From the NCBI GenBank assembly GCA_964596615.1, contig CAZQUN010000001.1, forward strand, positions 66,786-130,785: a stretch of 64,000 bases of DNA, in the 5' to 3' direction. The stretch's first letter is position 1. Every line of letters starts with the position of its first letter. Origin of the DNA: an uncultured Candidatus Saccharibacteria bacterium. GTDB taxonomy: Bacteria > Patescibacteriota > Minisyncoccia > Portnoybacterales > UBA2143. The position numbers and the translations under genes are program-made. The notes beneath the pieces are model-generated. The model did no database searches. It was given only the letters and a program-made list of their open reading frames with translations, and was not told where the DNA came from. Of the stretch, positions 1-39,745 are shown one piece after another.

Positions 1-687
1 AAGAATAATGAAAAAAGGAATAAAGAGATAGAATAGAAACTTTTTTTCTTTCTTAAGCAGAAGATAAATTAAAAGAATTGGCGCTGCAATTAAGAACGCT
101 TCCCTGGCTATCCCGGCTAAAGCCAGGAAAATCCCGGCCAGAGACATTAGAATATATTTATATCTAAAATCTGATTTAAAACCAACAAAAAACAAAAGAA
201 AGAATATTGATAAGAAGAGAAGGGCGACTTCATAGACCCCAAAGTTGTAGGCGGCATACCACCAGTTAAAGGGAAGGAGGATATAGATGAAGGAGAATAA
301 GGCGGCTGTTTTTAGATTGAAGAGATAATAGACGGCGATAGTAAAGATAATTAGTGCTAGGACCAGAATACCAATTGAGATAAAGATTAGATTATTATAG
401 GAAGGTAATCCTGTTATCTTAAATATCTGAGATATGACAATGGGGGCGAGGCGGTTGCTTTCAGTTGAAATTTGTCCCTCCTCTTCAACCAAAGAAGAAG
501 CCAGGAAAACATTAAGACTGTTCTCTGCCCCAAAAAATCCTTCTTGGGACAGATTCCTGGCCAAAAGAGAACTCTTCCATAATTCCATCGGCGAGTAACC
601 TTTGAACATAACCGGAGAATACCAAACTAAAGCTGCTAGGGCAGAGATAATAATTAAAAAACTAATGAGATTTAAAGCATTCTTCAT
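1..687 (-). CDS. Integral membrane protein, C-terminally truncated by window edge (N-terminus MKNALNLISFLIIISALAALVWY...). Not in ORF track
   Basis: Hand translation of the minus strand from ATG at 687..685 gives an open, highly hydrophobic frame to position 1. The ATG overlaps the upstream stop as ATGA (translational coupling). Confidence 0.45.
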   Translation of the reverse strand, partial: MKNALNLISFLIIISALAALVWYSPVMFKGYSPMELWKSSLLARNLSQEGFFGAENSLNVFLASSLVEEEGQISTESNRLAPIVISQIFKITGLPSYNNLIFISIGILVLALIIFTIAVYYLFNLKTAALFSFIYILLPFNWWYAAYNFGVYEVALLFLSIFFLLFFVGFKSDFRYKYILMSLAGIFLALAGIAREAFLIAAPILLIYLLLKKEKKFLFYLFIPFFIIL

Positions 688-1457
688 GATTTCCTGGCAA
701 TAACTAATTGATGATCTCCTTTAATAGAAGAAGGAAGAAACATAGCGAAAAAATCAAGCAAAGGAATAGAAACCAGAGGATAAATATCTTTTTTCTCAAC
801 CTTAAATCCTGTCTGAGTTATCCTTTTTAGCAACTCTTTAGAAGAGACCGGACTAATATGACCAGGGTGATAATCTTTAAACTGCCTTCGATGGATTTCA
901 ACTTTTTTAATTAATCGATAAGCCCTTCCAGAAGCGCTTGTCCTCATCAAAATATTTCTCATGTGATTAAAAGGAAATTTGGAAAAAAAGTAATCATCAT
1001 TATCGGTGGTAATAACTATCCTTCCTCCTGGCTTTAAAATCTTAAAGACCTTTTCTAAAAATACTTCTGGTTTGCCTAAATGCTCAATAACATCAAAAGC
1101 AGTTATTAAATCCGGAGATTCAATATCTAATTGATCAATTTCGTAAGCAGAGTGCTGAATAACTTTTAATCCCGGATAGCGTTCTTTGGCAAATTCAACC
1201 GCGTACCGGGAATAATCGCAGCCGATTACTCTTGCTCCCATCTTTGACATTCTGTCCGTGAAAAATCCGCCGCCACAGCCAACATCCAAGACAGATTTTC
1301 CTTTTAGGCCTAGTCCGTTTAAATGTTTGAAAATATGACCGAGCCGGGAAGAGCTAAATTTAGAAAAATACCTGTATTCCAGACTTAAAAAGTATTCCAA
1401 GTCATAAAAGCCATCATCTTTTTCATCAAATTGAACAACCTTTTGTTCTTTAGTCAT
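684..1457 (-). CDS. Class I SAM-dependent methyltransferase
   Basis: Motif I VLDVGCGGGFF and the downstream acidic and post-II motifs typical of Methyltransf_11/12 fold. Confidence 0.7.
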   Translation of the reverse strand: MTKEQKVVQFDEKDDGFYDLEYFLSLEYRYFSKFSSSRLGHIFKHLNGLGLKGKSVLDVGCGGGFFTDRMSKMGARVIGCDYSRYAVEFAKERYPGLKVIQHSAYEIDQLDIESPDLITAFDVIEHLGKPEVFLEKVFKILKPGGRIVITTDNDDYFFSKFPFNHMRNILMRTSASGRAYRLIKKVEIHRRQFKDYHPGHISPVSSKELLKRITQTGFKVEKKDIYPLVSIPLLDFFAMFLPSSIKGDHQLVIARKS

Positions 1458-2820
1458 TTTTTATCTTCTTAAAATATTTAACAACAAACAAGGTCTGAAG
1501 CAGTATCCCGCCGAATCCGAAATATATTGAAAGAGAAACTGCCGATTCTAAAGGAGAAAAAAAGAACTTATTCAGGATAAAAAACAAAGCCAGGCCGCTA
1601 GCAATAATTGACAGATTAATTACCAAGAGCGGCCTCATCTTATTCAAAGTCCTAAAGAAACTGCCGTAGCCAACCGCCAGACCAGCCAGAACCCAGCCCA
1701 AAAGCAAAACATAAATTAGCTTTATCGCGGGTAAAAACTCCTGGCCATACAAAAATTTAATCAGAACTGGCGCTAGTAAAACAAAGGGGATTAACAACAG
1801 AAGAAAAATAAGGCCGGAAGTTAGACTAGCTTTCTTAAAATTATCCTTAAAAATCTTTCCACCATAAACTAACGATTTAGGCAATTGAACAATTAAAATC
1901 CTTGAAATTGGGGTCATAAAAACCAAAGGCAGAGCTAAATAGCTACTGGCTATTTTAAAGAAGGCCGTTTGAGAGGTATTAGCGGCAAACATACCCAGAA
2001 GGAATACTGGTAGGATAGTATAGAGATTGGTCAGATTCTTATTAACAGAAATCAAAAGACCAAAACCAAAATATTTCCTAAACCTAATATTTTTAAGATT
2101 CCTCAAAATTTGAGAAAGCGATGGAATTAAATTATCTCTTTTTGACAAGCGAGAAAGGATTAAGAGAGAAATGATAAAAAATATTATTGCCGAAAAGAAA
2201 TGACCAAAAACAATTCCCCAAAGACCGTAACCCAATAAAACAAAAGAAACCGGCAAAATCAAATAGATTAATTTATTGAAATTTTCAATAATAGTTAGTT
2301 TCTTTATTTCCCTAATCGACTGAAGAATCAAAGTCAGCATTGAAAAAAGAATTCTGATTAAAACAGCCAAAAAAAGAAGACGGGCCATTTGACCAATTTC
2401 TGGATTCTGATAAAACCAACTAGTTAAAATTGGAGAAATTATTAAAGCTAAAAGACCAACTGTTAGAAAGATAAGCAAACTTAAATAGACAAAATAGCTT
2501 AAAATATTTTTAATTTCTTTTTTGTTCTTTTCCACATAAGCAGCCGGGAATAAAGTCAAAGCACTATAACCCGCTCCCCAATCCATAAACAAACTAACTA
2601 ATCCAACAAAAGCAAAAATTAAAGCGTAAAGACCATAGGTTTCCGCTCCTAATAAGCGGGCGATAACTATTGAGCCAATAGCTGAAACAGCCAAAGAGAA
2701 AAATGAGCCAACCTGAAGAACCGAAACGTCCTGAACGAATTTCTTTTGGCTTAATTCTTTAATTGTTTTAGGTATCTTATTCATTGTATAAATTAAACAC
2801 CGCTTTAAAAACATCGTCAA
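1450..2820 (-). CDS. Polysaccharide flippase-like membrane protein (MOP/Wzx-type)
   Basis: About 12-14 predicted TM helices, 456 aa, located in a GT cluster. Confidence 0.5.
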   Translation of the reverse strand: MTMFLKRCLIYTMNKIPKTIKELSQKKFVQDVSVLQVGSFFSLAVSAIGSIVIARLLGAETYGLYALIFAFVGLVSLFMDWGAGYSALTLFPAAYVEKNKKEIKNILSYFVYLSLLIFLTVGLLALIISPILTSWFYQNPEIGQMARLLFLAVLIRILFSMLTLILQSIREIKKLTIIENFNKLIYLILPVSFVLLGYGLWGIVFGHFFSAIIFFIISLLILSRLSKRDNLIPSLSQILRNLKNIRFRKYFGFGLLISVNKNLTNLYTILPVFLLGMFAANTSQTAFFKIASSYLALPLVFMTPISRILIVQLPKSLVYGGKIFKDNFKKASLTSGLIFLLLLIPFVLLAPVLIKFLYGQEFLPAIKLIYVLLLGWVLAGLAVGYGSFFRTLNKMRPLLVINLSIIASGLALFFILNKFFFSPLESAVSLSIYFGFGGILLQTLFVVKYFKKIKND

Positions 2821-3913
2821 CAGTTATTAATTTAAGACATTTTAACTTTTCTGGGTTGCGACAAACTCTGGCCGGAGGAAGAACAAAAGAACAAGGAAGA
2901 CATTCAATTTTTTTCTGGACAATAATGCAATTTTCACCTAAAGGTGGTTGTTCATTAATATCAATTGGACCAGCTATATCAACAACCGGAATACCAACAG
3001 CATTAGCCATATAAAGAGGCCCGGTATCAACACTGACAAATACTTTCATTTTTGATAAGAAAGCTGATGACTGAGGAAGAGTAAATAATCCGGCCAGATT
3101 AAATATCCTATTCTTCATCATTGATTCCAAATGATTAATTTTACCTTTATCCTTTTCAGAACCAAAAACAATAATCTCAACACCTAAATCATTGATTAAT
3201 TTGTCAAATAATTGAGCGAATTTTTCCAATGGCCACTCCTTTAAAACATTGCCGGCAGTTACGGCTGTTCCAATTAAATTTTTACCAACCAAATCATTTT
3301 CTCTTAAAAAGCTATCAACTTTTTTTTCATCTTCTTGACTAAAGAATAATTCCTTCTTTTTATCTGTTTCTTTAATATTAATAAATTCAAGCAATTTAAG
3401 ATAATGGGTCGCTGTTAAAGTATGCCTCTTGTACTCCAATCTATCTTTAAAAAGAAGAGAAAGCATCCTGTTGGTTTTGCTAGTATATCTAGAAGTTGTC
3501 ATAACTCTTTTCGGAATAGGCGACCACAAAGAGACTAGAATACCTAAGAGGTCTGGTAATAAGGTAAAACAGGTATCAAATTTCTTTTCCCTGATTTTGG
3601 AAATGAAGGCCAGTTTTTTAAAAAATCCGCCTTTAATGAAATTATCGGCTAAAATTATTTCATCAATATGAGGATTGTTTTCTAAAACCGAAGAAGCCAT
3701 CCCGAGACAGATAACCGCTAAATAGCTTTCCGGATATTTTCTTTTTATCTCTCTAAAAACCGGTGTTGAACAAACCAAGTCCCCTATTTTAGCTGTCTGA
3801 ACAATTAAAATCTTTTTCTGATTGCTTTTTTTAAAAAAACTAATCAATGAAAATAAGGGATAGAAAAGATAAGTTAAAATGAGGAAAATTAATTGTTCAA
3901 TGTATTGATTCAT
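2777..3913 (-). CDS. GT9 family glycosyltransferase (heptosyltransferase-like)
   Basis: N-terminal ILIVQTAKIGDLVCSTPVFREIK and C-terminal SVDTGPLYMANAVGIPVV resemble RfaF/RfaC signature regions. Confidence 0.65.
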   Translation of the reverse strand: MNQYIEQLIFLILTYLFYPLFSLISFFKKSNQKKILIVQTAKIGDLVCSTPVFREIKRKYPESYLAVICLGMASSVLENNPHIDEIILADNFIKGGFFKKLAFISKIREKKFDTCFTLLPDLLGILVSLWSPIPKRVMTTSRYTSKTNRMLSLLFKDRLEYKRHTLTATHYLKLLEFINIKETDKKKELFFSQEDEKKVDSFLRENDLVGKNLIGTAVTAGNVLKEWPLEKFAQLFDKLINDLGVEIIVFGSEKDKGKINHLESMMKNRIFNLAGLFTLPQSSAFLSKMKVFVSVDTGPLYMANAVGIPVVDIAGPIDINEQPPLGENCIIVQKKIECLPCSFVLPPARVCRNPEKLKCLKLITVDDVFKAVFNLYNE

Positions 3914-5694
3914 AGAAACTGATAAAGACTAACATCTTTTCCTTGATAGACCGGTTCCAAAAAGCGATAATTATCCAAATTCCATTGAGGATGAAGATTT
4001 TTATCCCAGATAATATAATCTATTGGGTGTTTTCTGAATTCTTCTTCTAGATCTTTTTGATAAAATTCTCTGTATTGGTCAACAACTTTTTGAACCTCCT
4101 CGTCAGTCGGCAGTTTATCTTTTTCAAGATAGGTTAATCGATAGCGATAATAATCATAGATTTTAAGAAATATTTCTTCTCTCTTCTCGTTAAAAAATAA
4201 TTCTTGGGTCATTTCGGGAGTAATTTTATCAAGACGATATTCAAAAAACATTGTCAGCTTATTGTCTTCAATCAAAGGAGGATTAAGATACCGGCTTTTG
4301 TATAAATACTCATCTAATTGAACATAGCAGGATATTAAATGAGCCGGCTTATTCTCCAGTGTCCCAGCGAAATATATTTGATTTTTCTGAGTGTTTTCCT
4401 TTATCCATTGATAAGCTGGCCCGTATTGCTGGCTATGTAAAAGCGTTTCTTCCTTAAATTCGTTGTAAACAAAGATTTCTTGGCTGATGACTAAATAAAA
4501 GCCGGTAAGAATAAACAAGATTAGAAGGAAATTAAAGAATTTAATGCTTTTCTTTCTGACTAAATCAAAGACAAGCCAGATAAAAAATACAATAACCAGG
4601 GGCTTAATAACATACCAATGATAATGGCCTGGCTGGACAATTCGCTGGGTAATGAGCTGCTGATTCAAAATGGCAATAAAGGAAAAAACTATCAAAGACC
4701 AAAGCCAAAGATTTTGACCTTTAATTCTTTTAGTCCAAAGGCCTAAAAGATACAGAACTAAAGCCAAGATTAAATACTTTCCAATTATCATTGAATTGGA
4801 AAGAGTCACCCCAACCAAGCTGGTAAATGAATTAAATGTTTCAGCAGTTGCCAGTTTGTAAAAATTAAACCAATAGGGCAGGGCAATTAAAAGACCGAGA
4901 AGTGTTATCCAAATAATTTTCTTCAATTTTAACCAGTCCCTTCTAAACCAAAACCAGAAAAGCGAAGATAGAATAAAAACAACCAAAAAGCTCCAGGTGA
5001 AAAAATAGATATAGAATGAAAGACCAAGTAAAATTCCAGCCAGCCAGAAATGCTTTTTCTTGGATTGGCCAAGATATGAATAGAAAGAAGATAAGAAGGA
5101 AAATAGGATTATCATTCCAAAAACAGGGATAATCGGACGAGAGAAAATAGAATACCTTGGAATAACAAAACTATTAGCCAGAAAAGCGCTTAGCTCTGAA
5201 GCTGAGCTAATTCCATACCAAAGCATTAAGCCGGCTGCTGAAACCAAGGCTATTTTTTTGTCCTGCTTAAACGAAAGAACAAAAAAATATATTGATAAAA
5301 ACAAGATTAGGGGCAGAATAAACTTGGTTAAGAGAAATATCTGAGAAACATCCAAAAAGAATATCCTCCCTAGCCGATAAAGAATCAATTGGCCTAAATG
5401 CGGACGCTGATAAGGTTGGTCGCCATTAAACGTCCAGAAAACATCTTTTAATCCCCAATCACCTTCAGAGATTTCTTGAAAACGGGATAAATAGTTTGTC
5501 TCAGCATCAATATTTAATATATTAACACCAGCATAATTATCCCCCATTTTAATCATAAAGATAAATTGGGGTAAAACCATTAAAAAACCAATTAGAATTG
5601 AAAAAATAATAGCCAAATAATGATCTTTGATAAATTGCCTCATATTTTTCGGATAAACTTTTTGATAATAATCAACTCTATTGGGAAACTCCAA
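3910..5694 (-). CDS. Large polytopic membrane protein with soluble C-terminal domain (GT-C/YfhO-like?)
   Basis: More than 10 TM segments followed by a ~200 aa hydrophilic tail; context only. Confidence 0.3.
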   Translation of the reverse strand: MEFPNRVDYYQKVYPKNMRQFIKDHYLAIIFSILIGFLMVLPQFIFMIKMGDNYAGVNILNIDAETNYLSRFQEISEGDWGLKDVFWTFNGDQPYQRPHLGQLILYRLGRIFFLDVSQIFLLTKFILPLILFLSIYFFVLSFKQDKKIALVSAAGLMLWYGISSASELSAFLANSFVIPRYSIFSRPIIPVFGMIILFSFLSSFYSYLGQSKKKHFWLAGILLGLSFYIYFFTWSFLVVFILSSLFWFWFRRDWLKLKKIIWITLLGLLIALPYWFNFYKLATAETFNSFTSLVGVTLSNSMIIGKYLILALVLYLLGLWTKRIKGQNLWLWSLIVFSFIAILNQQLITQRIVQPGHYHWYVIKPLVIVFFIWLVFDLVRKKSIKFFNFLLILFILTGFYLVISQEIFVYNEFKEETLLHSQQYGPAYQWIKENTQKNQIYFAGTLENKPAHLISCYVQLDEYLYKSRYLNPPLIEDNKLTMFFEYRLDKITPEMTQELFFNEKREEIFLKIYDYYRYRLTYLEKDKLPTDEEVQKVVDQYREFYQKDLEEEFRKHPIDYIIWDKNLHPQWNLDNYRFLEPVYQGKDVSLYQFL

Positions 5695-7112
5695 AATTCA
5701 TGGTCCCATCTGAATTTCTCAATCTTATGCATCAAATATCCCGCTATTTTAAGAAAAGGATTCTTAAAAAATCCGGAAAAGCGATTGTATTCTGTGGCAA
5801 AGCGGGAACAAAGAGAAAAATGAGGAGAGAATTTATGCTTCGGCCAAGGAGTATTAACCTCTTCAATATTATAGTCCGCCCAGGAAACCAAACTATCAGG
5901 AGGAATAAAGCCATATTCCTGGCTTGTTTTAAAAATCGGCGTGCCCGGATAAGGAGTAAAAATCTTAATAGAAGTATTAGCTTCTGGAGTAATTCTTTTA
6001 AGTTCTTTCATAACCTTGATTGTCTCTGAAACATCTTCGGGTTTTTCACCGGGAAAACCAAGCATAAAAGAATACCAGCCCTTGAAATCATATTTTTTAA
6101 TTATTCGAGCGCTTTCAATGATTTGCTCAACAGTAATATCTTTTCTAATTTTATCCAAAACTCTTTGAGAGCCCGATTCTGCTCCCAAAAACAAGGCCGA
6201 AAGACCAGCTGATTTTAATAATTTCAAGAAATCATCATCCATTCTGGCTAAATAGTCGATTCGGCAATCCGCCTCCCACTTTATGTCTAAGTTGTTTTCT
6301 ATGAATAACTGGCAAATCTTTTTAACTCTGTCAAAATTAACAAAAAAATTATCATCCCAGAAAATTATTCCATCAACCCCATATTTCTCCTTAACTCGTT
6401 TAACCATTTCCAGGACTTTTTCAGGAGACATTGCCCGCCAGTTTCTTTTGTTAAACTCCATGTTGTAGCAAAAAGTACATTGATGACAACATCCTCGGCT
6501 AACCTGAAGAGCAGTGTTTTTTCCGCTCAAACCTGATGACTGATAATTTTTTAAATTAACAAGATTCCAGGCTGGATCCGGTAATCCATCCACGGCTAAA
6601 AACGGCCTTTCCGGATTGTTAACCACCTGACCATTCTTCTTAAAAGAAATCCCTGAAATGCTGTCCAATGGCTTTTCTTCTTTTAAAGCTCTGACTAATT
6701 CCAATAGGGTTTCCTTGCCTTCTCCTCGAACAACAATATCAATATTTTTTTCTTCCAAAGTTTGTTTGGGGAATAAGCTTGAATGGACCCCTCCCCAGAT
6801 AAGAGGCAAATCAGGAAAATTCTTTTTAACAAAGTTAGTCACTTCCAACCCATTATATATCTGATGACCGGTTAAAGCTGAAATACCAAGACAAATAGCG
6901 TCTTTCCCTTCTGATAAAATCAGTTCTTTCCAGTTTGAATCAAAATCAGCATCAATCACCACTGGTGAAAAACCGGCTTTTTCAAGATAAGAAGCCAGGC
7001 AAAGAATCGATAAAGGAGGCCTTCTAACAACTAAAGTCCCTAATTTTGGGTAAACTAAAATTATTTTTCTTTTGTCCTTCATCCTATTTTTTGGAAGAAA
7101 TAGAGCTTCCAT
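5640..7112 (-). CDS. Cobalamin-binding radical SAM enzyme (class B rSAM)
   Basis: N-terminal B12-binding-like Rossmann region (ICLGISALTGH..IWGGVH) followed by SRGCCHQCTFC, which matches the CxxxCxxC motif. Confidence 0.8.
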   Translation of the reverse strand: MEALFLPKNRMKDKRKIILVYPKLGTLVVRRPPLSILCLASYLEKAGFSPVVIDADFDSNWKELILSEGKDAICLGISALTGHQIYNGLEVTNFVKKNFPDLPLIWGGVHSSLFPKQTLEEKNIDIVVRGEGKETLLELVRALKEEKPLDSISGISFKKNGQVVNNPERPFLAVDGLPDPAWNLVNLKNYQSSGLSGKNTALQVSRGCCHQCTFCYNMEFNKRNWRAMSPEKVLEMVKRVKEKYGVDGIIFWDDNFFVNFDRVKKICQLFIENNLDIKWEADCRIDYLARMDDDFLKLLKSAGLSALFLGAESGSQRVLDKIRKDITVEQIIESARIIKKYDFKGWYSFMLGFPGEKPEDVSETIKVMKELKRITPEANTSIKIFTPYPGTPIFKTSQEYGFIPPDSLVSWADYNIEEVNTPWPKHKFSPHFSLCSRFATEYNRFSGFFKNPFLKIAGYLMHKIEKFRWDHEFWSFPIELIIIKKFIRKI

Positions 7113-13296: not shown

Positions 13297-13335
13297 ATTC
13301 TCTTAATAATACTCTTTATTTAACCTTTTTTCAAG

Positions 13336-13362
13336 ATAAAAAAACGAAGCCAAAGCCTCGTC
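13336..13362 (-). terminator. Intra-cluster rho-independent terminator followed by promoter-like TTGAAA-17-TATTAT
   Basis: Hairpin ACGAAGC-caaa-GCCTCGT followed by a U-run on the minus strand. This is the only gap longer than 60 bp in the 33-kb cluster. Confidence 0.4.
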
Positions 13363-13391
13363 TCTTGTAAAAATTATTCTGTTTTTTAGAC

Positions 13392-21349: not shown

Positions 21350-21355
21350 ATTATT

Positions 21356-22267: not shown

Positions 22268-22273
22268 ATACCT

Positions 22274-22921: not shown

Positions 22922-22922
22922 A

Positions 22923-27544: not shown

Positions 27545-27550
27545 AGGTCT

Positions 27551-28144
27551 CTACTTTACTAAAAAGACATTAAAGCCCGATGCTTGTTTTCCTGAAAAAA
27601 ACTTATCAATTAACCTGATAAAAGGAAGAAAAATCTTAATTTTCCTCAAAGGAGTCAGATTAAAAACTGTCTCCAGATTACCCCGAACCGGACAAATCTC
27701 AATTACCTTAAAATCTTCGAACAAATATTTAACTCCATCCTCAGTGTATCGAAAGTAATCCTGGTAAACCCCTTTATGAGCATGATAAGGATAAAGGAAA
27801 GGAAGATAGATTAATCCTTTGCCGCCTGGTTTCAAAACTCTGAAAATTTCCCGGGCGGCTTTTTTCGGTTCCTGGATATGCTCTAAGACCGCTTTGCAGA
27901 TAACAGCATCGAAGGATCCATCTTCAAAAGGCATTTGGCAAACATCGCCAACAATATCGGGATTAAAACTTGGCTCTTTATCCAAAACCTGGTAATTGCT
28001 TTCCTTAAAAAGCTCTTTGTATTTTTGAAGTTCTTTTTGGAATTTAAAGCCGCCGCCAATATCAAGGATATTTTTCTCCTGGGCAATTTCTCTAATTTTA
28101 TCGTCAAAAAACCTTTCCCATTTGGTCATGTTAAATCTTTCCAA
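27551..28144 (-). CDS. Class I SAM-dependent methyltransferase
   Basis: ILDIGGG; VLKPGGKGLIYLP. Confidence 0.65.
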   Translation of the reverse strand: MERFNMTKWERFFDDKIREIAQEKNILDIGGGFKFQKELQKYKELFKESNYQVLDKEPSFNPDIVGDVCQMPFEDGSFDAVICKAVLEHIQEPKKAAREIFRVLKPGGKGLIYLPFLYPYHAHKGVYQDYFRYTEDGVKYLFEDFKVIEICPVRGNLETVFNLTPLRKIKIFLPFIRLIDKFFSGKQASGFNVFLVK

Positions 28145-29244
28145 AACTTAATTATCTTTCTAATAGTTTTCTCTTGATTGAACCTTTCTCTGACTATTCT
28201 TCTTCCAGCTCTCCCTATTTCCTTGGCTTTTTCCGGATTATTAAGCAAAAACAAAACCTTCCTAGCCAAAGCAGCGCTGTCGCCAATATCAATCAAATAT
28301 CCATTAACTCCGTTTTTAATGATTTCTTTGGAGCCGGTTGTTCTGGTTGCAACAACTGGCAGTCCAGCCGCCATAGCTTCAACTAAAACCTTGCCAAAGC
28401 TTTCATGCTTGGATGAGGAGATATATATATCTGAAGCATGATAGTAATTAGTTAATTCTTCTAATTTAATTTCCCCAGTTGAGGTTAAAATTAAATTCTT
28501 ATCCCCTTTTATTCTCCCTGGTAAATATTCTCTGTTTCCGACCTGCCAGAAAGCCAGATTCTTGTAATCCTGATGAATTGATTCAATTACTTTGTAGAGA
28601 GTTTTAAAATCCTTGGATGGATCTTTCCGGCCAACATTAATTAAAACTTTTTTGTTCCGATGTTTTTCTCTAAAGCTCTTTACTTTTTTCTCATCAAAAT
28701 CTTCAAACTTTTCCAAATCAATTGGGGTTGAAATGACTCTAATTTTTTCCTTCTTAATTCCATTGCTAACCAATTTCTTTTTAATCCCTGAACTGGTTAC
28801 CCTGACCCCATCCGCTCCTCTAACAACAAATTTACTGATTAAAAGGAAAAACCAGTTAAACCACCATCTTCCCTTTTCAAAAAACCAATACTTGTTCTGC
28901 CAAAAATCTCCATGGAAATGAACCAGCAAAGGAACATTAAAGGCCTTCTTAATCAGCCAGCCAGCCAGACCATTAAGAAACGGATCTTGGCAGACAATCA
29001 AATCAAAATCCAGGCGTCGGGCAATTCCAAAAGCGTTAAAAACATAATTTAATTTAGTTCTGGAATTAGTCGGATAAATTGTTAAATGCGAATTAACTTT
29101 CCTTTTTTCAAATCCTTTTTTAGTTAGAAGGATGACATCCAAATGATCAGCTCTTTGGCCATACTCCTTATGACGCTCTAAAGCATCGCCGCTGAATCCG
29201 GCGCCTAATAATGCTCTTTCAATGCTGATCATTAAAACCCTCAT
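28126..29244 (-). CDS. GT4 family glycosyltransferase (start trimmed to MRVLMISIE)
   Basis: GT-B fold; ESFGKVLVEAMAAGLPVV. The ORF-track start would overlap the upstream mini-gene. Confidence 0.7.
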   Translation of the reverse strand: MRVLMISIERALLGAGFSGDALERHKEYGQRADHLDVILLTKKGFEKRKVNSHLTIYPTNSRTKLNYVFNAFGIARRLDFDLIVCQDPFLNGLAGWLIKKAFNVPLLVHFHGDFWQNKYWFFEKGRWWFNWFFLLISKFVVRGADGVRVTSSGIKKKLVSNGIKKEKIRVISTPIDLEKFEDFDEKKVKSFREKHRNKKVLINVGRKDPSKDFKTLYKVIESIHQDYKNLAFWQVGNREYLPGRIKGDKNLILTSTGEIKLEELTNYYHASDIYISSSKHESFGKVLVEAMAAGLPVVATRTTGSKEIIKNGVNGYLIDIGDSAALARKVLFLLNNPEKAKEIGRAGRRIVRERFNQEKTIRKIIKFWKDLT

Positions 29245-29248
29245 AATA

Positions 29249-29428
29249 TTAATCCTTCCTATAAAGCCAGGTAACTCCGGCAATAACACCTAAAGAAACG
29301 ATAATATCAAACTCCAGGGCAATAATCTCCCTAAAATCTTTAACCTCTGAGAAATAGTAGATAATTTCGAAAATGAGAAAAAATATCATCAGAGACAAGA
29401 CTAAATAGTAGGCTGCTTTTTTATTCAT
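29249..29428 (-). CDS. 59-aa two-TM membrane mini-protein (MNKKAAYYLVLSLMIFFL...)
   Basis: Internal Met of the 94-aa ORF; its ATG overlaps the stop of the upstream rSAM gene as ATGA; hydrophobic. Confidence 0.4.
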   Translation of the reverse strand: MNKKAAYYLVLSLMIFFLIFEIIYYFSEVKDFREIIALEFDIIVSLGVIAGVTWLYRKD

Positions 29429-30885
29429 GTTTTTGTGACAAATCTTTTTGCTAATTTGTAATCCCAGGGAAAACCAAAAAACTTTAATTTCCATCTCATC
29501 TGGCAAAGCAGAACAAAAGGCAGTTTCAGCCATTTGGTTGCTTTAACAGTTGAACCAAGAGCGCTTTTAATTGAATGAGCGCCAAATCTGACATAGGCCT
29601 CCAATGACTCAACAAAATCAGGATTCTCCAGCCAGGGAAACCTGGAAACGTCTAAATAGTTTAATTGGTCTCTGGCTGTCTCTGACCATTCCTGAAGCGA
29701 TCTTGGTTCTTGCCAGCCGGACTGAAGGCATTCAGCATAAAGTTCGGAGCCAGGATAGGGCCGAAAAGCCTGAGGGCCTAAAATTTGAATCCTGTCGCCT
29801 AATTTAACCAACCGGTCAATTAATTTCAATGTTTCCATAACTTCATCTTTGGTTTCTCCCGGTAGGCCGGCCATAAAGGAATATTGGGGAATAATATCAT
29901 ATTTCAAGCACATCTCAGCTGAACGAAGCACATCTTCTGGATCAATATCCTTTTTAATTTTCTTAAGAATCCTCGGACAACCTGATTCAGCTCCAAAAGA
30001 TAAAAGATAGCAACCGGACTCTTTAATTTTCTTCAAAAATTCCTCATCAATCATTCCATCTTTTAAATAGTTAGCCCGAACGGTCGTCTCCCAAGGAATA
30101 ACTAAATCACTCTCAATCATGCCATTAATAATACCTTTAGCTCTTTTAATATCAACAAAGAAATTCTCATCCCAGAAACGAAGTTTCTTTCCTTTGAAAT
30201 ATGGACTGGTTTTAATGCTTCTAATATCCTCCAAAACCTGATCAACTGTTCTTGGTCGCCAATTACACTTTAAAATGGCGTTAATACAAAAAGCGCAGCG
30301 ATGAGGGCATCCTCTTGAAGTCAAGGAAGGAACCAGATACAAATCTTGAAGGATTTTTTCCGGCATTAATTCCCATTTGAACAAGGGCATTTGAGTTGGA
30401 TCATGTAATCCCTGAGACAAGCTTATCGCTATCTCCCCACCCTTTTTAAAGGCGATGCCTGATATCTGATTCAAGGACTTTTGATTAACAATATCAAGCA
30501 TGGGCAATTCCCCTTCCCCATAGCAGACAACATCAATTAAAGGATGTCTGGCGGTCTGGTCAGTAAAAAAGCTCGGATGAGGCCCACCCCAGATAATCTG
30601 ACATTCTGGATTAATTTCTTTAATTAATTCCGAGGCCTTAAGAGCAGCTGGAACTTGAGTGGTCATAACGGAGATTCCGGCAAAATTACAATCAGGAGCT
30701 TTTTCCTTAATTAAATTCAAATAGTTTTTCTGTCTGACACCGTCAATAATTTCAACATCAATTCCATTATCATTTAAATATGTGGCAATGCTCAAAAGCC
30801 CGACAGAAATGGAACTGTCGTAATTCTCTTTGTTAATATTAAATGGTGGATTAATGAGTAAAACTTTAGGCATTGAACAATTCAT
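29425..30885 (-). CDS. Cobalamin-binding radical SAM enzyme (class B rSAM)
   Basis: B12-binding-like N-terminal domain and SRGCPHRCAFC. Confidence 0.8.
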   Translation of the reverse strand: MNCSMPKVLLINPPFNINKENYDSSISVGLLSIATYLNDNGIDVEIIDGVRQKNYLNLIKEKAPDCNFAGISVMTTQVPAALKASELIKEINPECQIIWGGPHPSFFTDQTARHPLIDVVCYGEGELPMLDIVNQKSLNQISGIAFKKGGEIAISLSQGLHDPTQMPLFKWELMPEKILQDLYLVPSLTSRGCPHRCAFCINAILKCNWRPRTVDQVLEDIRSIKTSPYFKGKKLRFWDENFFVDIKRAKGIINGMIESDLVIPWETTVRANYLKDGMIDEEFLKKIKESGCYLLSFGAESGCPRILKKIKKDIDPEDVLRSAEMCLKYDIIPQYSFMAGLPGETKDEVMETLKLIDRLVKLGDRIQILGPQAFRPYPGSELYAECLQSGWQEPRSLQEWSETARDQLNYLDVSRFPWLENPDFVESLEAYVRFGAHSIKSALGSTVKATKWLKLPFVLLCQMRWKLKFFGFPWDYKLAKRFVTKT

Positions 30886-31504
30886 CTAATGAATTAATTA
30901 CAGCAAGAGAATGCTTTTTTAAATCAAGAGTATGTTCTCCTCTTTCCAGATGGATAAAATCAGCCCCGGCATTCTTGGCGTAAAGAGCATCTTCATTGCT
31001 ATTACCGATATAGAGGGTTTCTTTTGGTTTAATTTTCATCTCTTTTAAAACAAAATGAAAGCTTTTTGGATCTGGTTTTTCTTTGTGTTTGCTTTCGAAT
31101 ATAGATAGGTAGAAGTCATAAGGAGCACCATTTATTTTTTTAATCTCAAAATTCGCGATTCTGTCAGGAGCGCCTGTGATAATAGAGACCAATTTATCAT
31201 GCTTTTTTAACTTTTTAAATCCCGGTTCAACATCCTGATAGGCTTTAGTAAATCTAGCTCTTTCCCTGGCTTTATCGTTCTTTCTAAAGGCGGGCCAGAA
31301 AACAAAGGGGTCAAGACCGAATTCATCTTTAATTATTTTATCCCTTCCTGTTTCAAACCAAAATCTGTTTACAGAATTACTGTCTCCGACTTTTCCTCCT
31401 AATTCCTTTACTGTTTTCGAAACAACCCGATGCCTATACTCTGGTAGGGTATAGACTAACGTTCCATCTAAATCAAATGAAATATGCTTGTATTTTTCAA
31501 TCAT
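30866..31504 (-). CDS. HAD superfamily hydrolase/phosphatase
   Basis: ISFDLDGTLV motif I; C-terminal GNSNEDAL...AG. Confidence 0.7.
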   Translation of the reverse strand: MIEKYKHISFDLDGTLVYTLPEYRHRVVSKTVKELGGKVGDSNSVNRFWFETGRDKIIKDEFGLDPFVFWPAFRKNDKARERARFTKAYQDVEPGFKKLKKHDKLVSIITGAPDRIANFEIKKINGAPYDFYLSIFESKHKEKPDPKSFHFVLKEMKIKPKETLYIGNSNEDALYAKNAGADFIHLERGEHTLDLKKHSLAVINSLDELFNA

Positions 31505-32655
31505 ACTTTCTCAAAGACACTTATCGTCTCCCTAATCAAATTATCCCAATTAAATCTTTTTAAATCCTCTTTAGCTTTTTCAACAAACCCGTTAGCTAAA
31601 TCGGAATTATCCAAAACCTTTCCAATCGCCCCTATCCACTCTTCCTTATCCCTATACCCAACCAGAATTCCAGTTTGATTATCCTTAATTGTTTCTAGAT
31701 TCCCACCAGCCGGAGTAGTAATAATTGGAATACCAGCTTTCATAGCTTCTAAAAGCAAATGAGACATGCCTTCATAATTAGTATTTAAAAGGAAAACATC
31801 GGCTAAAGACAAGTAATCAATAACTTGCTGACGGCTGGCCTTGCCGGTAAAGACAACATTATTCTCCAATTTAAGATTTTTGGTTAATTGCTTTAAATTT
31901 TCTGACTCCGGACCCTGGCCAACAACAACCAGTTTGATTTCTCCGTGTTTCTTAATCAAATCCGGCACAATTTCAATTAGCATGTCAATTCCTTTCCAGG
32001 GAACCAATCGGGCAATAGTTAAAAGAATTTTTCCTTCCAAATCCGCTTTTTGCTTTAACTCTTCTTTCCCAGCTGAGGGATTCATTTCAAAAAAATCAAT
32101 TGAATTGTAAATGACTTTAATTTTTTCTTCCGGCAAACCAATCTTTAAGGCAACCTCTTTTAAGAAATTACTGGCAACAATAATTTTGTCCGAATTAACC
32201 AGTATTTTCTTTCTGATTTTTTTCCTTTTTTCAACCTTTGGAGAATATTTCTTTTCCTGGAAAACCATAATATCATCAGAGACAATTTTTTCAGCAGATG
32301 ACTTCTCCCAGGCTGAATCACCGACAAACCGGGTAACTAATCTCTTTCCTAAAACCTTTTTAATAATTAAACTGGTTAGTCCGGCAGTATACAAATCTTG
32401 GCTGTATAAGATATCTGTTCTCAGTCCATACCAAAGACCCCATTTGAGGTAGATAAAGCTCTTTAAAAATCCAGGCCAGAGATTAGAAACTCTTTTGACC
32501 GGATAAGGATATTTATCTTTGCTCTTACCAAAAGTCAAAACCCTGACTTTAAAACCATTCTTAATCAAATCCTTAGCTAAAGGATCCAAAAAAGCACTCG
32601 GTCCGCCAATATCAGGCGGGAAAACTCCTGATAAGATTAAAATTCTTTTGCTCAT
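31501..32655 (-). CDS. GT4 family glycosyltransferase
   Basis: GT-B; EGMSHLLLEAMKAGIPIITT. Confidence 0.7.
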   Translation of the reverse strand: MSKRILILSGVFPPDIGGPSAFLDPLAKDLIKNGFKVRVLTFGKSKDKYPYPVKRVSNLWPGFLKSFIYLKWGLWYGLRTDILYSQDLYTAGLTSLIIKKVLGKRLVTRFVGDSAWEKSSAEKIVSDDIMVFQEKKYSPKVEKRKKIRKKILVNSDKIIVASNFLKEVALKIGLPEEKIKVIYNSIDFFEMNPSAGKEELKQKADLEGKILLTIARLVPWKGIDMLIEIVPDLIKKHGEIKLVVVGQGPESENLKQLTKNLKLENNVVFTGKASRQQVIDYLSLADVFLLNTNYEGMSHLLLEAMKAGIPIITTPAGGNLETIKDNQTGILVGYRDKEEWIGAIGKVLDNSDLANGFVEKAKEDLKRFNWDNLIRETISVFEKV

Positions 32656-33806
32656 AATTGATTGAAGGCCTCTTCCATTTTCAAAGCAATATTATCCCAG
32701 TTGTATTTCTCCCTAACTAATTCTAAACCATTTTTAATTAATTTCTCTCTCAATAAGTCATCTTCTAAAACTTCCTTAACTTTCTGAGCGATACTTTCAG
32801 GGCTTTTTGGCTGACAAAACAATCCGGTCTCTCTGTCAATCAGAAAATCAGGAATTCCGCCAACTGGCGTTCCAATAATTGGCAAACCGGTTGCCATGGC
32901 TTCCAAAAAAACATTGCCCAATCCTTCGGAAACTGAAGGCCGGACAAAAACATCAGCTAGATAATAGTATTTAACAATTTCCTTATGATCCATATGGCCC
33001 AAGAATTTAATCTTATCCTCAAGATTCAACTCTTTAACCAAGTTCCTTAATTTCTTCTCTTCCGGGCCAATATCAATAATTAAAATCTTAAAAGGGAAAT
33101 CAAGGTATTGCCCGGCTTTGATTAAATCATCAACTCCATTCTTTTTAACTAATCTTGAAACAGTTAGAATTATTTTTTCTCCTGAAACAATTCCTGATTT
33201 TTCCTCCGGTCTTTTCGGTCTAAACAAATCCAAATCAACTCCATTGGGAATAATTTTAATCGGAACTCTGTCATTGTTTTTTAAAGCTCTTTTTTTCAGA
33301 TGACTACTGATGACTGTAATAGCATCGGCATTTTTAAAGGAAAGCAGATGCCAGGGTTTAATTAAAATCTGGTAAAGAAATTTAATTCCAAAAACATATC
33401 TTTCCAAATGCTCTTCTGGATCACCTTCTTGGATAGTTAAAAGCAGTTTCTTGCCTTTGCTTGAGAATTTAAAGAATACTGCTGCCACTCCGGCTTGAGA
33501 AGCCATAATTGACCAGATTATTGAGTAATCCCTTTTCTTATCCAATTGAACCACTTTTAAAACTCCTAGAATAGGGAGAAGAAATTTATCTAAAATATTC
33601 AGACCAAAGCCGGTCCGATAAATATTAACATTGTCTATTTTCTCAAATTTAGCCAGTTTTGGGCTAATTCTAGCTGTAATCAAATCAAACTGCCAATCGG
33701 GCAGCCTTTGGGTGATTTCTCTGACGGCAATTTCCGCTCCGCCGGTCAAAGGAAGATAGGCAGTCGAGAAAATGAGAATAGTTTTTTTGGCTTGATTGCT
33801 AGCCAT
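32652..33806 (-). CDS. GT4 family glycosyltransferase
   Basis: GT-B; EGLGNVFLEAMATGLPIIGT. Confidence 0.7.
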   Translation of the reverse strand: MASNQAKKTILIFSTAYLPLTGGAEIAVREITQRLPDWQFDLITARISPKLAKFEKIDNVNIYRTGFGLNILDKFLLPILGVLKVVQLDKKRDYSIIWSIMASQAGVAAVFFKFSSKGKKLLLTIQEGDPEEHLERYVFGIKFLYQILIKPWHLLSFKNADAITVISSHLKKRALKNNDRVPIKIIPNGVDLDLFRPKRPEEKSGIVSGEKIILTVSRLVKKNGVDDLIKAGQYLDFPFKILIIDIGPEEKKLRNLVKELNLEDKIKFLGHMDHKEIVKYYYLADVFVRPSVSEGLGNVFLEAMATGLPIIGTPVGGIPDFLIDRETGLFCQPKSPESIAQKVKEVLEDDLLREKLIKNGLELVREKYNWDNIALKMEEAFNQL

Positions 33807-33830
33807 ATCTATGTTTTAATATATAATAGA

Positions 33831-34958
33831 ATGGCGAAAAAATCAATCCTATACATTATTACCAAATCAGTCTGGGGCGGCGGCAACCGCTATGTTTTTG
33901 ATTTGGCTACTGCTTTAAAAAAAGAAAATCACCGGGTTTTTATCGCTGCTGGCGGAAAAGAAAGATTCTACCAGGAAATTAACAAAACCGACATCCCATA
34001 TTTCAACATTAACGGTTTTCAAAGAACCGTTAATTCTTTTAAGGATATTTTTGCTTTTTTTGAAATTCTAAGCTTGATTCTTCAATTAAAGCCGGAAGTC
34101 ATTCACACCAATAGCCCTAAGGTCGGAGGAATTGCCGGCTTGGCTGGTTGGATTTACAAATTTTTCTCACATCAAAAAACCAAATTAATCTATACTCCTC
34201 ATGGCTGGGCTTTTTCAGAAGACCGACCCCAATGGCAAATTTCATTAATTAAATTATTCAGCAAATTAACCTGTCTTTTTTACGATAAAATTATCTGTGT
34301 TTCGGAGCACGATAAGAGAAACGCCCTTAAAAACAATATCGCGCCTGAGAATAAATTAATTACAATCCATAACGGACTTCGTCCAGTATCATTTTTAGAA
34401 AAAAAACAAGCCCAGGAAAAATTAATCCAAAAAACCCCTCCTTTAGTTATTGGAACAATTGCTGAATGGACTAAAAACAAAGGACTTTTCTATCTCTTAA
34501 AAGCAATTAAAGAAATTGACAAGGAATTTGAATTAATCATGATTGGCAGCGGAGAGAACCCGGATAAAGAGAAAATGCATCAATATATTAAAAAGAATGA
34601 ATTAAAAAATGTTCATTTAATTGAATGGATTGACAATGCTTCTCAATATTTAAAGGCTTTTGACATTTTTATCCTTCCCTCAATTAAAGAGGGCCTGCCT
34701 TATACAATTCTTGAGGCCTCGGCAGCTGAAATTCCGATTATCACTACTCCAATCGGAGGTATCCCGGAAATAATTAAAAATAATGTTAATGGTCTTTTGG
34801 TTCAACCAAAAAACAGCCAACAACTGGCTGAAAAGATAAAATACTTGATTAATAATCCGGAGAAAATTAAAGAATTAACTCGAAAAGCAAAAGAAAAGGC
34901 AGAAAAAGAATTTAGTTTGGAAAAAACAATAGAAAAGACAAAAGGATTGTATGCCTAG
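33831..34958 (+). CDS. GT4 family glycosyltransferase (start at MAKKSILYII)
   Basis: GT-B; EGLPYTILEASAAEIPIITT. Diverges from the 32652..33806 gene with only 24 bp between the two start codons. Confidence 0.7.
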   Translation: MAKKSILYIITKSVWGGGNRYVFDLATALKKENHRVFIAAGGKERFYQEINKTDIPYFNINGFQRTVNSFKDIFAFFEILSLILQLKPEVIHTNSPKVGGIAGLAGWIYKFFSHQKTKLIYTPHGWAFSEDRPQWQISLIKLFSKLTCLFYDKIICVSEHDKRNALKNNIAPENKLITIHNGLRPVSFLEKKQAQEKLIQKTPPLVIGTIAEWTKNKGLFYLLKAIKEIDKEFELIMIGSGENPDKEKMHQYIKKNELKNVHLIEWIDNASQYLKAFDIFILPSIKEGLPYTILEASAAEIPIITTPIGGIPEIIKNNVNGLLVQPKNSQQLAEKIKYLINNPEKIKELTRKAKEKAEKEFSLEKTIEKTKGLYA

Positions 34959-39668: not shown

Positions 39669-39698
39669 ATCAAGCTTCTATTACGAAAGCAAGGCAAC

Positions 39699-39714
39699 GA
39701 AACAAAATTGTTTC
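39699..39714. promoter_or_regulatory. Perfect 16-bp palindrome GAAACAAAATTGTTTC upstream of the 447-aa surface protein gene
   Basis: Seen directly; lies in the 77-bp gap between two surface-protein genes. Confidence 0.35.
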
Positions 39715-39745
39715 TGTCTCCATTGTCCCCGTAATATCCTTATTT

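Follow-up and report, generated by a model that had tools for sequence, protein, structure and literature searches.

Why should a locus for surface glycans in a bacterium of the Candidate Phyla Radiation (CPR) carry a whole set of radical S-adenosylmethionine (SAM) enzymes, and what do they do to the sugars assembled there? The question is raised by a window of 64,000 nucleotides, the whole stretch analysed here (positions 66,786 to 130,785 of contig CAZQUN010000001.1, assembly GCA_964596615.1), from an uncultured bacterium deposited as Candidatus Saccharibacteria and placed by GTDB in the Portnoybacterales. We read its left part as a locus for a lipid-linked cell-surface glycoconjugate, put together from at least two modules, with C-methylation during lipid-linked assembly as the likeliest radical chemistry, a reading that we hold with somewhat better than even confidence. 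Behind C-methylation we rank, in this order, radical sugar chemistry that does not methylate, chemistry directed at a lipid and maturation of a ribosomally synthesised and post-translationally modified peptide (RiPP).

Between 684 and 33806 the window holds 30 consecutive minus-strand open reading frames (ORFs), just as the initial annotation of this DNA had described a co-directional block; genes are named below by their lower coordinate (Table 1). As listed, neighbouring ORFs overlap by 1-55 nt or are separated by spacers of 1-6 nt, the larger overlaps arising because ORFs were drawn from upstream TTG or GTG starts, and the only two real intergenic gaps lie at 13297-13391 (95 nt) and 29290-29424 (135 nt). 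A plus-strand ORF (33708/33831-34958) borders the run on the right. The block had been delimited at 684-34958, and while the gene run is real, the locus goes on past both of these ends and spans more than 38 kb: on the left a further co-directional ORF with several transmembrane (TM) segments begins at 687 and leaves the window, and beyond 34958 lie a membrane protein with Wzy_C and tetratricopeptide repeat (TPR) domains (35277-37544) and then a TPR protein (37546-38232). The single internal terminator that had been called fits a minus-strand hairpin with a U-run at about 13338-13366, spotted by eye (dG -14.2 kcal/mol, z -4.3), but a generic promoter and terminator scan of 12000-31500 gave no enrichment over shuffled sequences (17 terminators found, 15.9 expected).

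The domain content of the run is that of glycan assembly. Pfam confirms each of the enzyme classes previously named, that is glycosyltransferases of the GT2, GT4, GT9 and GT-C types, an AsnB amidotransferase, a NodB-type (CE4) deacetylase, a short-chain dehydrogenase/reductase (SDR) and a haloacid dehalogenase (HAD)-family phosphatase, next to methyltransferases, three B12-binding radical SAM enzymes and two radical SAM-SPASM enzymes. The six GT4 genes start at 18822, 24645, 28126, 31501 and 32652 on the minus strand and 33831 on the plus strand, the GT2 genes at 13392, 14339 and 16961, the GT-C (PMT_2) gene at 15594 and the GT9 gene at 2777. The GT9 protein scores 89 bits in Pfam and 116 bits against a cut-off of 135 for the NCBIfam heptosyltransferase II family, and with this score and no gmhA/hldE-type gene in the window it does not qualify as a lipopolysaccharide (LPS) heptosyltransferase. 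Six stand-alone methyltransferase ORFs were counted (those named start at 684, 9500, 22274, 22923 and 27551, with 9500 taken as the sixth), and a methyltransferase remnant is additionally fused to the GT2 at 14339. Calling the product of 9500 degenerate was fair, as it passes the Pfam threshold and lacks the GxGxG motif I. With 11 TM segments and 74-bit matches to Polysacc_synt and Polysacc_synt_3, ORF 1450-2820 has the features of a Wzx flippase, and ORF 35277-37544 combines 11 TM segments, TPR repeats and a Wzy_C match of 68 bits (cut-off 31.7). AsnB (25694) also exceeds the NCBIfam asparagine-synthase cut-off and has an intact N-terminal Cys2 (MCG), and the CE4 deacetylase would be cytoplasmic, because it has no signal peptide; amidation and N-deacetylation, as proposed from the start, are thus reasonable.

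As a general kind, then, a Wzx/Wzy-type glycan locus is already known. The region resembles the O-antigen, capsule and S-layer-glycan loci of this kind in its co-directional GT4 and GT2 genes, its sugar tailoring, its MOP-type (Wzx) flippase, its Wzy_C protein and a G+C content lower than that of 38-48 kb. It differs in that the window holds no initiating phosphoglycosyltransferase, chain-length regulator or export machinery, in that a CPR host is not expected to have a lipid A-core, and in its five radical SAM enzymes, three of them B12-binding. The claim that this is not a described O-antigen or capsule architecture with a known product stands, none having been found in the literature searched.

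The view of the block as one supercluster did not survive comparison with related loci. In tblastn searches of all window proteins against 31 loci, each 13 kb or longer, the left half (684-18825) was absent from the loci that carry orthologues of the second B12-binding radical SAM enzyme (rSAM#2, 19925), yet it is kept as a conserved block of its own in another locus (L058). We therefore rejected a single 34-kb unit and regard the locus as a mosaic of at least two modules. Module A, as synteny delimits it, covers 18822-33806 and is conserved separately from the other module, with rSAM#2, a GT4 and AsnB as its core. An orthologue of GT4 18822 lies directly downstream of the rSAM#2 orthologue in 10 of 12 Patescibacteria loci, and AsnB lies within 10 kb of it in 11 of the 12. 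Its companions across these loci are GT4 18822, AsnB and the GT4s 28126, 31501 and 32652, joined frequently by the methyltransferases 22274 and 27551, GT4 24645 and the deacetylase. The third B12-binding enzyme (rSAM#3, 29425), which in the window is likewise followed by a GT4, across the 135-nt gap, has orthologues of 57-73% identity in five of the same 12 loci.

With upwards of 1,700 homologues (E<1e-10), the rSAM#2 family is large. The best 120 are all at least 52% identical, those with a name all being labelled Patescibacteria group or Portnoy-, Nealson- or Pacebacteria, and the clade comprises more than 100 Patescibacteria sequence clusters at this level of identity. A scan of GTDB species representatives gave 49 loci, with identities of 50-85% in metagenome-assembled genomes of Patescibacteria, 42-48% in Omnitrophota and Auribacter and about 36% in Desulfarculaceae. 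The closest of these homologues place the host among Patescibacteria of the Parcubacteria type. In one Omnitrophota locus (L034) a 42% homologue stands between two methyltransferases and a Wzx flippase, with carbamoyltransferase, DegT, GT4 and radical SAM-SPASM genes nearby. The neighbourhood of the Desulfarculaceae homologues (at most 37% identity) is not glycan-related (PIN-TRAM, FtsY), so the glycan association of the clade cannot be extended that far. Several GTDB records with close homologues (noted for L008 and L027, contig CAZJPW010000003.1, and for L014) bear the name 'Candidatus Saccharibacteria' and a single one the name 'Gammaproteobacteria', with proteins 68-85% identical to Portnoybacteria-type sequences, and these taxon labels are probably unreliable.

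Module B is a second conserved block at about 2777-16964, seen in the genomic context of its nucleotidyltransferase and made up of a GT-C, two GT2 enzymes, a flippase-like protein, a radical SAM-SPASM enzyme, an SDR, a nucleotidyltransferase resembling aminoglycoside nucleotidyltransferases (ANT) and an AlkP-type phosphodiesterase. L058 keeps an order near that of the window: PMT_2 (58%), methyltransferase-GT2 (69.5%), GT2 (67%), LPG_synthase_TM (63%), radical SAM-SPASM (83%), SDR and methyltransferase, followed by the nucleotidyltransferase-like gene (60%), Phosphodiest, three B12-type radical SAM genes, GT9 (39.5%) and a fourth B12-type radical SAM gene. Much of the module is also common to glycosylation loci of DPANN archaea. 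A Nanoarchaeota locus (L060) has the radical SAM gene (38%), SDR, nucleotidyltransferase-like gene (41%), Phosphodiest (41%), LPG_synthase_TM and GT2, with AglH-type and STT3/AglB genes beside them; an Undinarchaeota locus has the nucleotidyltransferase-like gene, Phosphodiest, a short B12-type radical SAM gene, LPG_synthase_TM, YfhO and GT2; and a Methanobacterium locus has the nucleotidyltransferase-like gene and Phosphodiest as a pair amid GT4 and GT2 genes. The recurrence of this pair (7079-9503 in the window; L057, L058, L060 and L061) in glycosylation loci of CPR bacteria, Nanoarchaeota, Undinarchaeota and Methanobacterium suggests a glycan-tailoring cassette shared between domains.

The nucleotidyltransferase of this pair (7079-8377) matches no Pfam or NCBIfam family. 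None of its 219 homologues carries a Pfam domain, most of the named ones come from DPANN archaea, and a profile search of the family returned 507 cluster representatives at E<=1e-30. The alignment (A2) has the signature GGFGRGEGS...NDYD, in which G41, E47, G48 and D62 are invariant and D64 nearly so. The structural model (pLDDT 92.5) matches ANT(4'') and AadA (E 7e-5 to 5e-4), with low TM-scores of 0.30-0.35 on the query, and also MntA, which, with the G-S...D-x-D catalytic signature and a helical C-terminal domain, places the protein among the ANT/AadA-type Pol-beta nucleotidyltransferases at the predicted fold level only. Another part of module B recalls the three-component systems for extracytoplasmic glycosylation (GtrA/B/V, ArnC/E-F/T, CsbB/GtcA/YfhO), with a GT2 (13392, three C-terminal TM segments), a flippase-like protein (12376, TIGR00374 at 90 bits, cut-off 43) and a GT-C (15594, PMT_2 at 36 bits, cut-off 26) in adjacent position, and the archaeal counterpart L057 has YfhO as its GT-C. 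It differs from them in that the flippase-like protein, whose flippase activity is putative, is of the LPG_synthase_TM type and not GtrA or EmrE-like, and in that the set is joined to a cassette of radical SAM-SPASM, SDR, nucleotidyltransferase and phosphodiesterase.

Is the load of radical SAM genes peculiar to this genome? The initial annotation called it unusual, which is right for a glycan locus, but it is no one-off: it is recurrent and typical of the lineage. Related CPR loci hold 1-5 B12-type radical SAM genes per stretch of at most 21 kb. Six lie on the 61.5-kb contig of L008 and L027, four within 7 kb in L058, and five (by tblastn) within 19 kb on a Portnoybacteria contig, where four have a B12-binding domain in the Pfam gene table. 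In L063 two AsnB genes, six methyltransferase genes and genes for GT4 and GT2 surround a 65% orthologue of the first B12-binding enzyme of the window (rSAM#1, 5640). One 772-aa protein, P0325 (L064, 5562-7880), unites in a single ORF partial matches to a methyltransferase and to GT1 with B12-binding and radical SAM matches, and its gene lies next to a UDP-sugar dehydrogenase; with truncated domain matches on a single 8.9-kb contig, it may be a true fusion of radical SAM enzyme and glycosyltransferase or an artefact of assembly, frameshift or gene calling, and we note it as a weak lead.

What chemistry do these enzymes perform? That the window encodes three B12-binding and two SPASM-type radical SAM enzymes, as had been read from their motifs (SRGCCHQCTFC, ARGCPNQCVFC and SRGCPHRCAFC), is borne out by Pfam above gathering scores. 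All three B12-type proteins match the B12-binding domain PF02310 (55-70 bits, cut-off 32) and PF04055 (73-100 bits), the class B domain architecture, and have the CxxxCxxC cysteines of the [4Fe-4S] cluster (C208/C212/C215 in rSAM#1, C203/C207/C210 in rSAM#2, C193/C197/C200 in rSAM#3), invariant for rSAM#2 in its family alignment (A1). With mutual identities of only 31-35%, they stand for three distinct clades. The two others have a radical SAM core and a SPASM domain (PF13186, cut-off 21.5) at 42 bits in ORF 11288 and 30 bits in ORF 17824, with 5 and 6 C-terminal cysteines against the canonical 7-8; the best NCBIfam match of ORF 11288 is the twitch-domain family NF033640 (92 bits, cut-off 170).

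From the class B architecture C-methylation had been suggested, and this step is not established: no family cut-off is reached, the nearest structure is that of AprD4, which binds no cobalamin, and HpnJ, BchE and OxsB are class B enzymes without methylation activity (review of cobalamin-dependent radical SAM enzymes). By analogy with MoeK5 and moenomycin, however, C-methylation is plausible, though unproven. Methylation is the commonest class B reaction according to reviews of these enzymes, HpnJ, MoeK5 and Fom3 cluster together in a sequence-similarity network (review), and MoeK5, a cobalamin radical SAM enzyme, C-methylates a chiral sugar centre of moenomycin. The likeness to the pathway for moenomycin unit F is one of gene set, namely a B12-domain radical SAM enzyme, an AsnB-type amidotransferase and glycosyltransferases acting on a lipid-linked sugar, where the moenomycin product is a C-methyl uronamide; the carbamoyltransferase beside the radical SAM gene in the Omnitrophota relative adds to it. 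In moenomycin, the AsnB-type MoeF5 and MoeH5 amidate the uronic acid and MoeM5 carbamoylates, both on the lipid-linked sugar. The differences are that moenomycin is a secondary-metabolite phosphoglycolipid of Streptomyces and not a Wzx/Wzy surface glycan, that the window has no dehydrogenase forming a uronic acid, and that it has three radical SAM paralogues and two SPASM enzymes.

Several observations weigh against our leading reading as a whole. All three B12-type enzymes stay below the NCBIfam equivalog cut-offs, with 28-218 bits against 251-775 (BchE, HpnJ, PhpK, TsrM, HpnR, AprD4 and others; best scores and cut-offs ApyD 218/750, BchE 212/481, HpnJ 184/578, PhpK 147/600, AprD4 91/500, TsrM 42/500), so their chemistry is not transferable by homology. 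The best fold match of the rSAM#2 model (pLDDT 85.9) is AprD4, with TM-scores of 0.73/0.76 over the full length. The window scans detected no UDP-sugar 6-dehydrogenase as a source of uronic acid and no gene for cobalamin uptake or remodelling, and CPR genomes are in general not known to synthesise cobalamin. Nor did an initiating phosphoglycosyltransferase of the WbaP/PglC or WecA/MraY type appear, there being no Bac_transf or Glycos_transf_4 match in the window ORFs scanned; its gene may lie elsewhere in the genome. Finally, modules A and B may each have a product of their own.

Part of this evidence favours an alternative that we regard as possible but held by the smaller share of our confidence, in which the glycan locus is the same and the B12-domain enzymes carry out other radical chemistry on sugars, possibly without cobalamin. 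They could dehydrate or deoxygenate a 1,2-diol as AprD4 does, with an SDR reducing the ketone, or contract or rearrange the ring of an amino sugar in the manner of HpnJ or OxsB, with a glycosyltransferase-deacetylase-radical SAM logic like that of HpnI/K/J. AprD4 is the best PDB match of rSAM#2 in sequence as well (E 1.8e-22, about 20% identity), and the two proteins have the same domain architecture, are about 450-490 aa long and lack an additional C-terminal domain. AprD4 is a sugar 1,2-diol dehydratase of aminoglycoside biosynthesis and, like ArsL, sits in the B12-type similarity network and binds no cobalamin, and HpnJ contracts a glucosamine ring (review). HpnJ is the top NCBIfam match of rSAM#3 and at or near the top for rSAM#2, and BchE is that of rSAM#1. 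The host lineage is not expected to make cobalamin. Yet the scores across the three enzymes (AprD4 40-91, HpnJ 143-184, BchE 99-212 bits) are far under the cut-offs of 500, 578 and 481. The rSAM#2 model also superposes full-length on TsrM, OxsB, TokK, MgmA and CysS, and because TsrM, OxsB and TokK give Foldseek E-values that differ from that of AprD4 by less than a factor of ten, the fold does not discriminate among chemistries. We therefore rejected an assignment of these enzymes to any one characterised family.

Two known systems bear on this alternative. AprD4 (with AprD3) and GenK/GenD1 are, like the enzymes of the locus, radical SAM proteins with an N-terminal Rossmann 'B12-like' domain that act on sugar rings, and the ANT(4'')/AadA fold of nucleotidyltransferase 7079 is a further likeness to aminoglycoside systems; these serve antibiotic biosynthesis, whereas the locus would serve assembly of a primary cell-envelope glycan, and conserved module A has no SDR that could reduce an AprD4-type ketone. 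The hopanoid genes hpnA, B, H, I, J, K and L share with the locus a GT2, a sugar deacetylase, a B12-type radical SAM enzyme, an HpnA-like SDR and an HpnL-like flippase-like protein, and among the named matches of window proteins HpnA, HpnJ and HpnL rank first or close to first. Here too the cut-offs are not reached (HpnA 156/368, HpnL 52/196), hopanoid synthesis genes are absent, and the deacetylase is CE4-type, whereas HpnK is YdjC-type.

Another alternative is that the radical SAM enzymes act on a lipid part, methylating, cyclising or cross-linking either the polyprenyl carrier or an anchor made of membrane lipid, and so give a tailored glycolipid or lipoglycan. Many recently assigned B12-domain radical SAM enzymes do modify lipids, among them HpnP/R, a ladderane enzyme and Gmm, the methylase of glycerol monoalkyl glycerol tetraether (GMGT), which resembles MoeK5. 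Several module B proteins have the 'hopanoid-associated' HpnA-, HpnL- and HpnB-like families as their best named matches, and the B12-type enzymes match the lipid-biosynthesis family TIGR04072 moderately (88-121 bits), though short of its cut-off of 360. CPR bacteria and DPANN archaea share module B despite different membrane lipids, and both probably scavenge lipids. We nevertheless consider lipid-directed chemistry unlikely: the locus contains no lipid-synthesis gene, the conserved neighbours of all three B12-type enzymes are glycosyltransferases, sugar-tailoring enzymes or flippases without exception, and the tight pairing of radical SAM enzyme and GT4 speaks for a sugar as the acceptor.

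Peptide maturation is the role for which SPASM enzymes are best known, and NCBIfam matches in the locus include WgkB, DynA, AlbA and ApyD, so that the SPASM and B12-type enzymes could in principle mature a RiPP that is then glycosylated, with the glycosyltransferases as accessories. The candidate precursor was a 59-aa ORF on the minus strand (29428-29249) that fills the 135-nt gap, its ATG overlapping the stop codon of rSAM#3 and 4 nt separating its end from the probable ATG of the GT4 that follows. We rejected it, as the peptide is hydrophobic and absent from all related loci, and the ORF is probably not a gene. The tight gene overlaps leave no other space for a precursor gene, Pfam scans of the run found no protease, RiPP recognition element or ABC exporter, the peptide-maturase matches are all far below their cut-offs, and the conserved partners are GT4, AsnB and flippase. 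RiPP maturation is, for us, very improbable.

Returning to C-methylation of a lipid-linked glycan, the domains, the order of the genes, the taxon and the conservation of both modules and of the pairing of radical SAM enzyme and GT4 are observed, and beyond these we infer substrates, order of steps, cobalamin use, methylation and final acceptor as follows. Module A, together with the divergent GT4 and the Wzy_C/TPR genes, would assemble an oligosaccharide on polyprenyl phosphate as its carrier, inside the cytoplasm, the six GT4 enzymes adding sugars that would be tailored, while lipid-linked or nucleotide-activated, by the CE4 N-deacetylase, AsnB, SAM-dependent O- or N-methyltransferases and the two B12-domain enzymes rSAM#2 and rSAM#3. 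AsnB would convert a carboxylate to a carboxamide on a uronic acid. The genes of rSAM#2 and rSAM#3 are each followed by a GT4, which suggests that the radical modification, here most likely C-methylation at an unactivated carbon of the sugar, generates or comes before the acceptor to which the following glycosyl group is transferred; the triad of rSAM#2, GT4 and AsnB might thus yield a residue of the C-methyl-hexuronamide type, following the logic of moenomycin unit F (MoeK5 with AsnB-type MoeF5/H5). Module B would contribute the Wzx flippase and the GT2, flippase-like and GT-C set for decoration outside the membrane. Its cytoplasmic tailoring enzymes, the radical SAM-SPASM enzyme with the SDR and the ANT-like nucleotidyltransferase with the AlkP-type phosphodiesterase and rSAM#1, would probably introduce a deoxy/keto modification or a substituent of phospho- or nucleotidyl origin. 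Once Wzx has flipped the glycan, the Wzy_C-TPR protein may polymerise it or ligate it to an acceptor, probably a protein, wall polymer or lipid anchor, because CPR bacteria lack LPS.

In reviews of cobalamin-dependent radical SAM enzymes, the sugar-acting members belong to secondary metabolism or hopanoid tailoring and none has an assigned role in assembly of a cell-surface polysaccharide or glycoconjugate; the word 'polysaccharide' does not occur in these reviews, nor 'glycan' in that of 2026. A full-text literature search gave no account of radical SAM enzymes in CPR glycan loci or of B12-type ones in O-antigen, capsule or exopolysaccharide loci. Paralogues of B12-domain radical SAM enzymes fixed next to glycosyltransferases, conserved across a major uncultivated lineage, and a tailoring cassette shared with DPANN archaea thus appear to be undescribed. 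Three clades of such enzymes beside glycosyltransferases provide concrete sets of enzyme and partners, above all rSAM#2, GT4 and AsnB, and the shared cassette offers a case of inter-domain gene sharing in surface glycosylation together with a Pfam-less nucleotidyltransferase family. The locus takes up more than 38 kb of a genome that measures roughly 0.6-1 Mb. CPR bacteria live as episymbionts and attach to their hosts through the cell surface, and a cofactor that is probably scavenged would tie envelope biogenesis to the surrounding community. We tentatively hypothesise, as a doubtful extension, that a signature surface glycan of Parcubacteria-type CPR depends on B12-type radical chemistry, the triad and its paralogues installing C-branched or radical-modified uronamide sugars, and that the cassette of radical SAM-SPASM, SDR, nucleotidyltransferase and phosphodiesterase has been exchanged between CPR and DPANN. 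If so, radical-modified uronamide chemistry, so far known only from antibiotics (moenomycin, gentamicin), would enter the cell envelope, and bacterial and archaeal episymbionts alike would carry one and the same unusual substituent on their surfaces.

Table 1. Features of the glycan locus, with positions counted from the first nucleotide of the window.
Feature	Position	Strand	Basis and remarks
Multi-TM protein, N-terminal 228 aa	1..687	-	No Pfam match; start overlaps stop of the 684-1457 gene; exits window
Class I SAM methyltransferase	684..1457	-	Methyltransf_23/11/12, E 1e-19 to 1e-21; GxGxG present
Wzx-type (MOP) lipid-linked oligosaccharide flippase	1450..2820	-	Pfam; 11 predicted TM
GT9 glycosyltransferase (heptosyltransferase-family fold)	2777..3913	-	39.5-52% homologues in L058, L004, L008
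594-aa membrane protein, 9 TM	3910..5694	-	No family; adjoins GT9 or radical SAM genes in L004 (30%), L010 (28%), L063 (25%)
B12-binding-domain radical SAM #1 (CCHQCTFC)	5640..7112	-	Pfam; 65% orthologue in L063
Pol-beta-type nucleotidyltransferase, ANT(4'')/AadA-like fold, Pfam-less	7079..8377	-	432 aa; motif GGFGRGEGS...NDYD; model
Alkaline-phosphatase-superfamily phosphodiesterase (PF01663)	8355..9503	-	Pfam; conserved partner of nucleotidyltransferase 7079
Methyltransferase-fold protein, degenerate SAM motif I	9500..10339	-	Pfam
SDR sugar epimerase/dehydratase/reductase	10317..11288	-	Best named relative HpnA, below cut-off
Radical SAM + SPASM/twitch #1, 5 C-terminal Cys	11288..12379	-	83% orthologue in L058; 38% homologue in Nanoarchaeota locus
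LPG_synthase_TM 'flippase-like' membrane protein, 8 TM	12376..13296	-	Pfam, NCBIfam
Terminator-like hairpin + U-run; promoter-like site 13334-13306	13338..13366	-	Folding
GT2 with C-terminal TM bundle (polyprenyl-phosphate-sugar-synthase-like architecture)	13392..14342	-	Pfam, TM prediction
Methyltransferase remnant-GT2 fusion	14339..15610	-	69.5% orthologue in L058
GT-C (PMT_2) membrane glycosyltransferase	15594..16964	-	Pfam, TM prediction
GT2 glycosyltransferase	16961..17845	-	Pfam
Radical SAM + SPASM #2, 6 C-terminal Cys	17824..18825	-	Pfam, NCBIfam
GT4, conserved partner directly downstream of rSAM#2	18822..19928	-	Pfam, related loci
B12-binding-domain radical SAM #2 (CPNQCVFC), family widespread in Patescibacteria	19925..21349	-	Pfam, homologues, model
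EamA-family transporter, 9 TM, not conserved in related loci	21356..22267	-	Pfam, tblastn
SAM methyltransferase	22274..22921	-	29-82% homologues in 10 of 31 loci (at least 13 kb), 9 of them Patescibacteria
Methyltransferase with N-terminal Trm112-like zinc ribbon	22923..23942	-	Pfam
CE4 (NodB/PgaB-type) polysaccharide deacetylase, no signal peptide	23939..24667	-	Pfam
GT4	24645..25697	-	Pfam, tblastn
AsnB-type glutamine amidotransferase, intact N-terminal MCG	25694..27544	-	Pfam, NCBIfam
SAM methyltransferase	27551..28144	-	Pfam
GT4 downstream of rSAM#3; true start probably ATG at 29244	28126..29289	-	Pfam
B12-binding-domain radical SAM #3 (CPHRCAFC)	29425..30885	-	57-73% orthologues in five CPR loci
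HAD-family phosphatase	30866..31504	-	Pfam
GT4	31501..32655	-	Pfam, tblastn
GT4, first gene of co-directional run	32652..33806	-	Pfam, tblastn
Divergent GT4; likely ATG 24 nt from start of minus-strand gene	33831..34958	+	Pfam
Wzy_C-domain (O-antigen ligase/polymerase/O-oligosaccharyltransferase family) membrane protein, 11 TM, C-terminal TPR	35277..37544	-	Pfam
Membrane-anchored TPR protein	37546..38232	-	Pfam, TM prediction

The G+C content of the glycan locus (1-38000) is 0.31-0.37 against 0.39-0.45 in 38-48 kb, and is low again in 50-64 kb, which makes the signal ambiguous; low G+C is common in surface-polysaccharide loci that are exchanged horizontally. Directly upstream of the Wzy_C/TPR genes, 38325-44531 on the minus strand encodes three secreted or membrane-anchored Pfam-less proteins of 447, 287 and 1207 aa, the largest with 23% Ser+Thr. 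That these are the acceptor glycoproteins of the locus is possible, and speculative. Like them, the 594-aa membrane protein (3910) and the left-end ORF have no Pfam or NCBIfam match even at E 0.1. Two more adjacent radical SAM genes (306 and 305 aa), without B12 or SPASM domain, lie at 60543-62383 on the minus strand, which belong to a reported total of eight radical SAM genes in the 64-kb window; their neighbours are Pfam-less ORFs at 59338, 62389 and 63386, and a PKD/Ig surface protein (58199) and three type-IV-pilin-like genes that carry N_methyl motifs (56623-58122) follow just downstream.

Between these regions, a 90-nt tRNA with anticodon CAU (46809-46898, minus strand) has an insertion of about 15-19 nt in its variable region that can form a stem, resembling a class-II extra arm. 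Its CCA end is encoded, and its G1-C72 pair excludes an initiator tRNA; in tRNAs of the Met/Ile2 type long variable arms are unusual. A gene pair for an XRE-type helix-turn-helix protein and an M78 (ImmA/IrrE-like) peptidase (48702-49692, minus strand) is followed by a 496-aa Pfam-less ORF and an Excalibur-domain protein (49963-51854), and this stretch (48702-51854), beside tRNA genes, may be a mobile-element or regulatory island. General domain scans of the flanks found DUF5667, an extracytoplasmic function (ECF) sigma factor, pilin-like genes and many Pfam-less ORFs, in line with a CPR genome.

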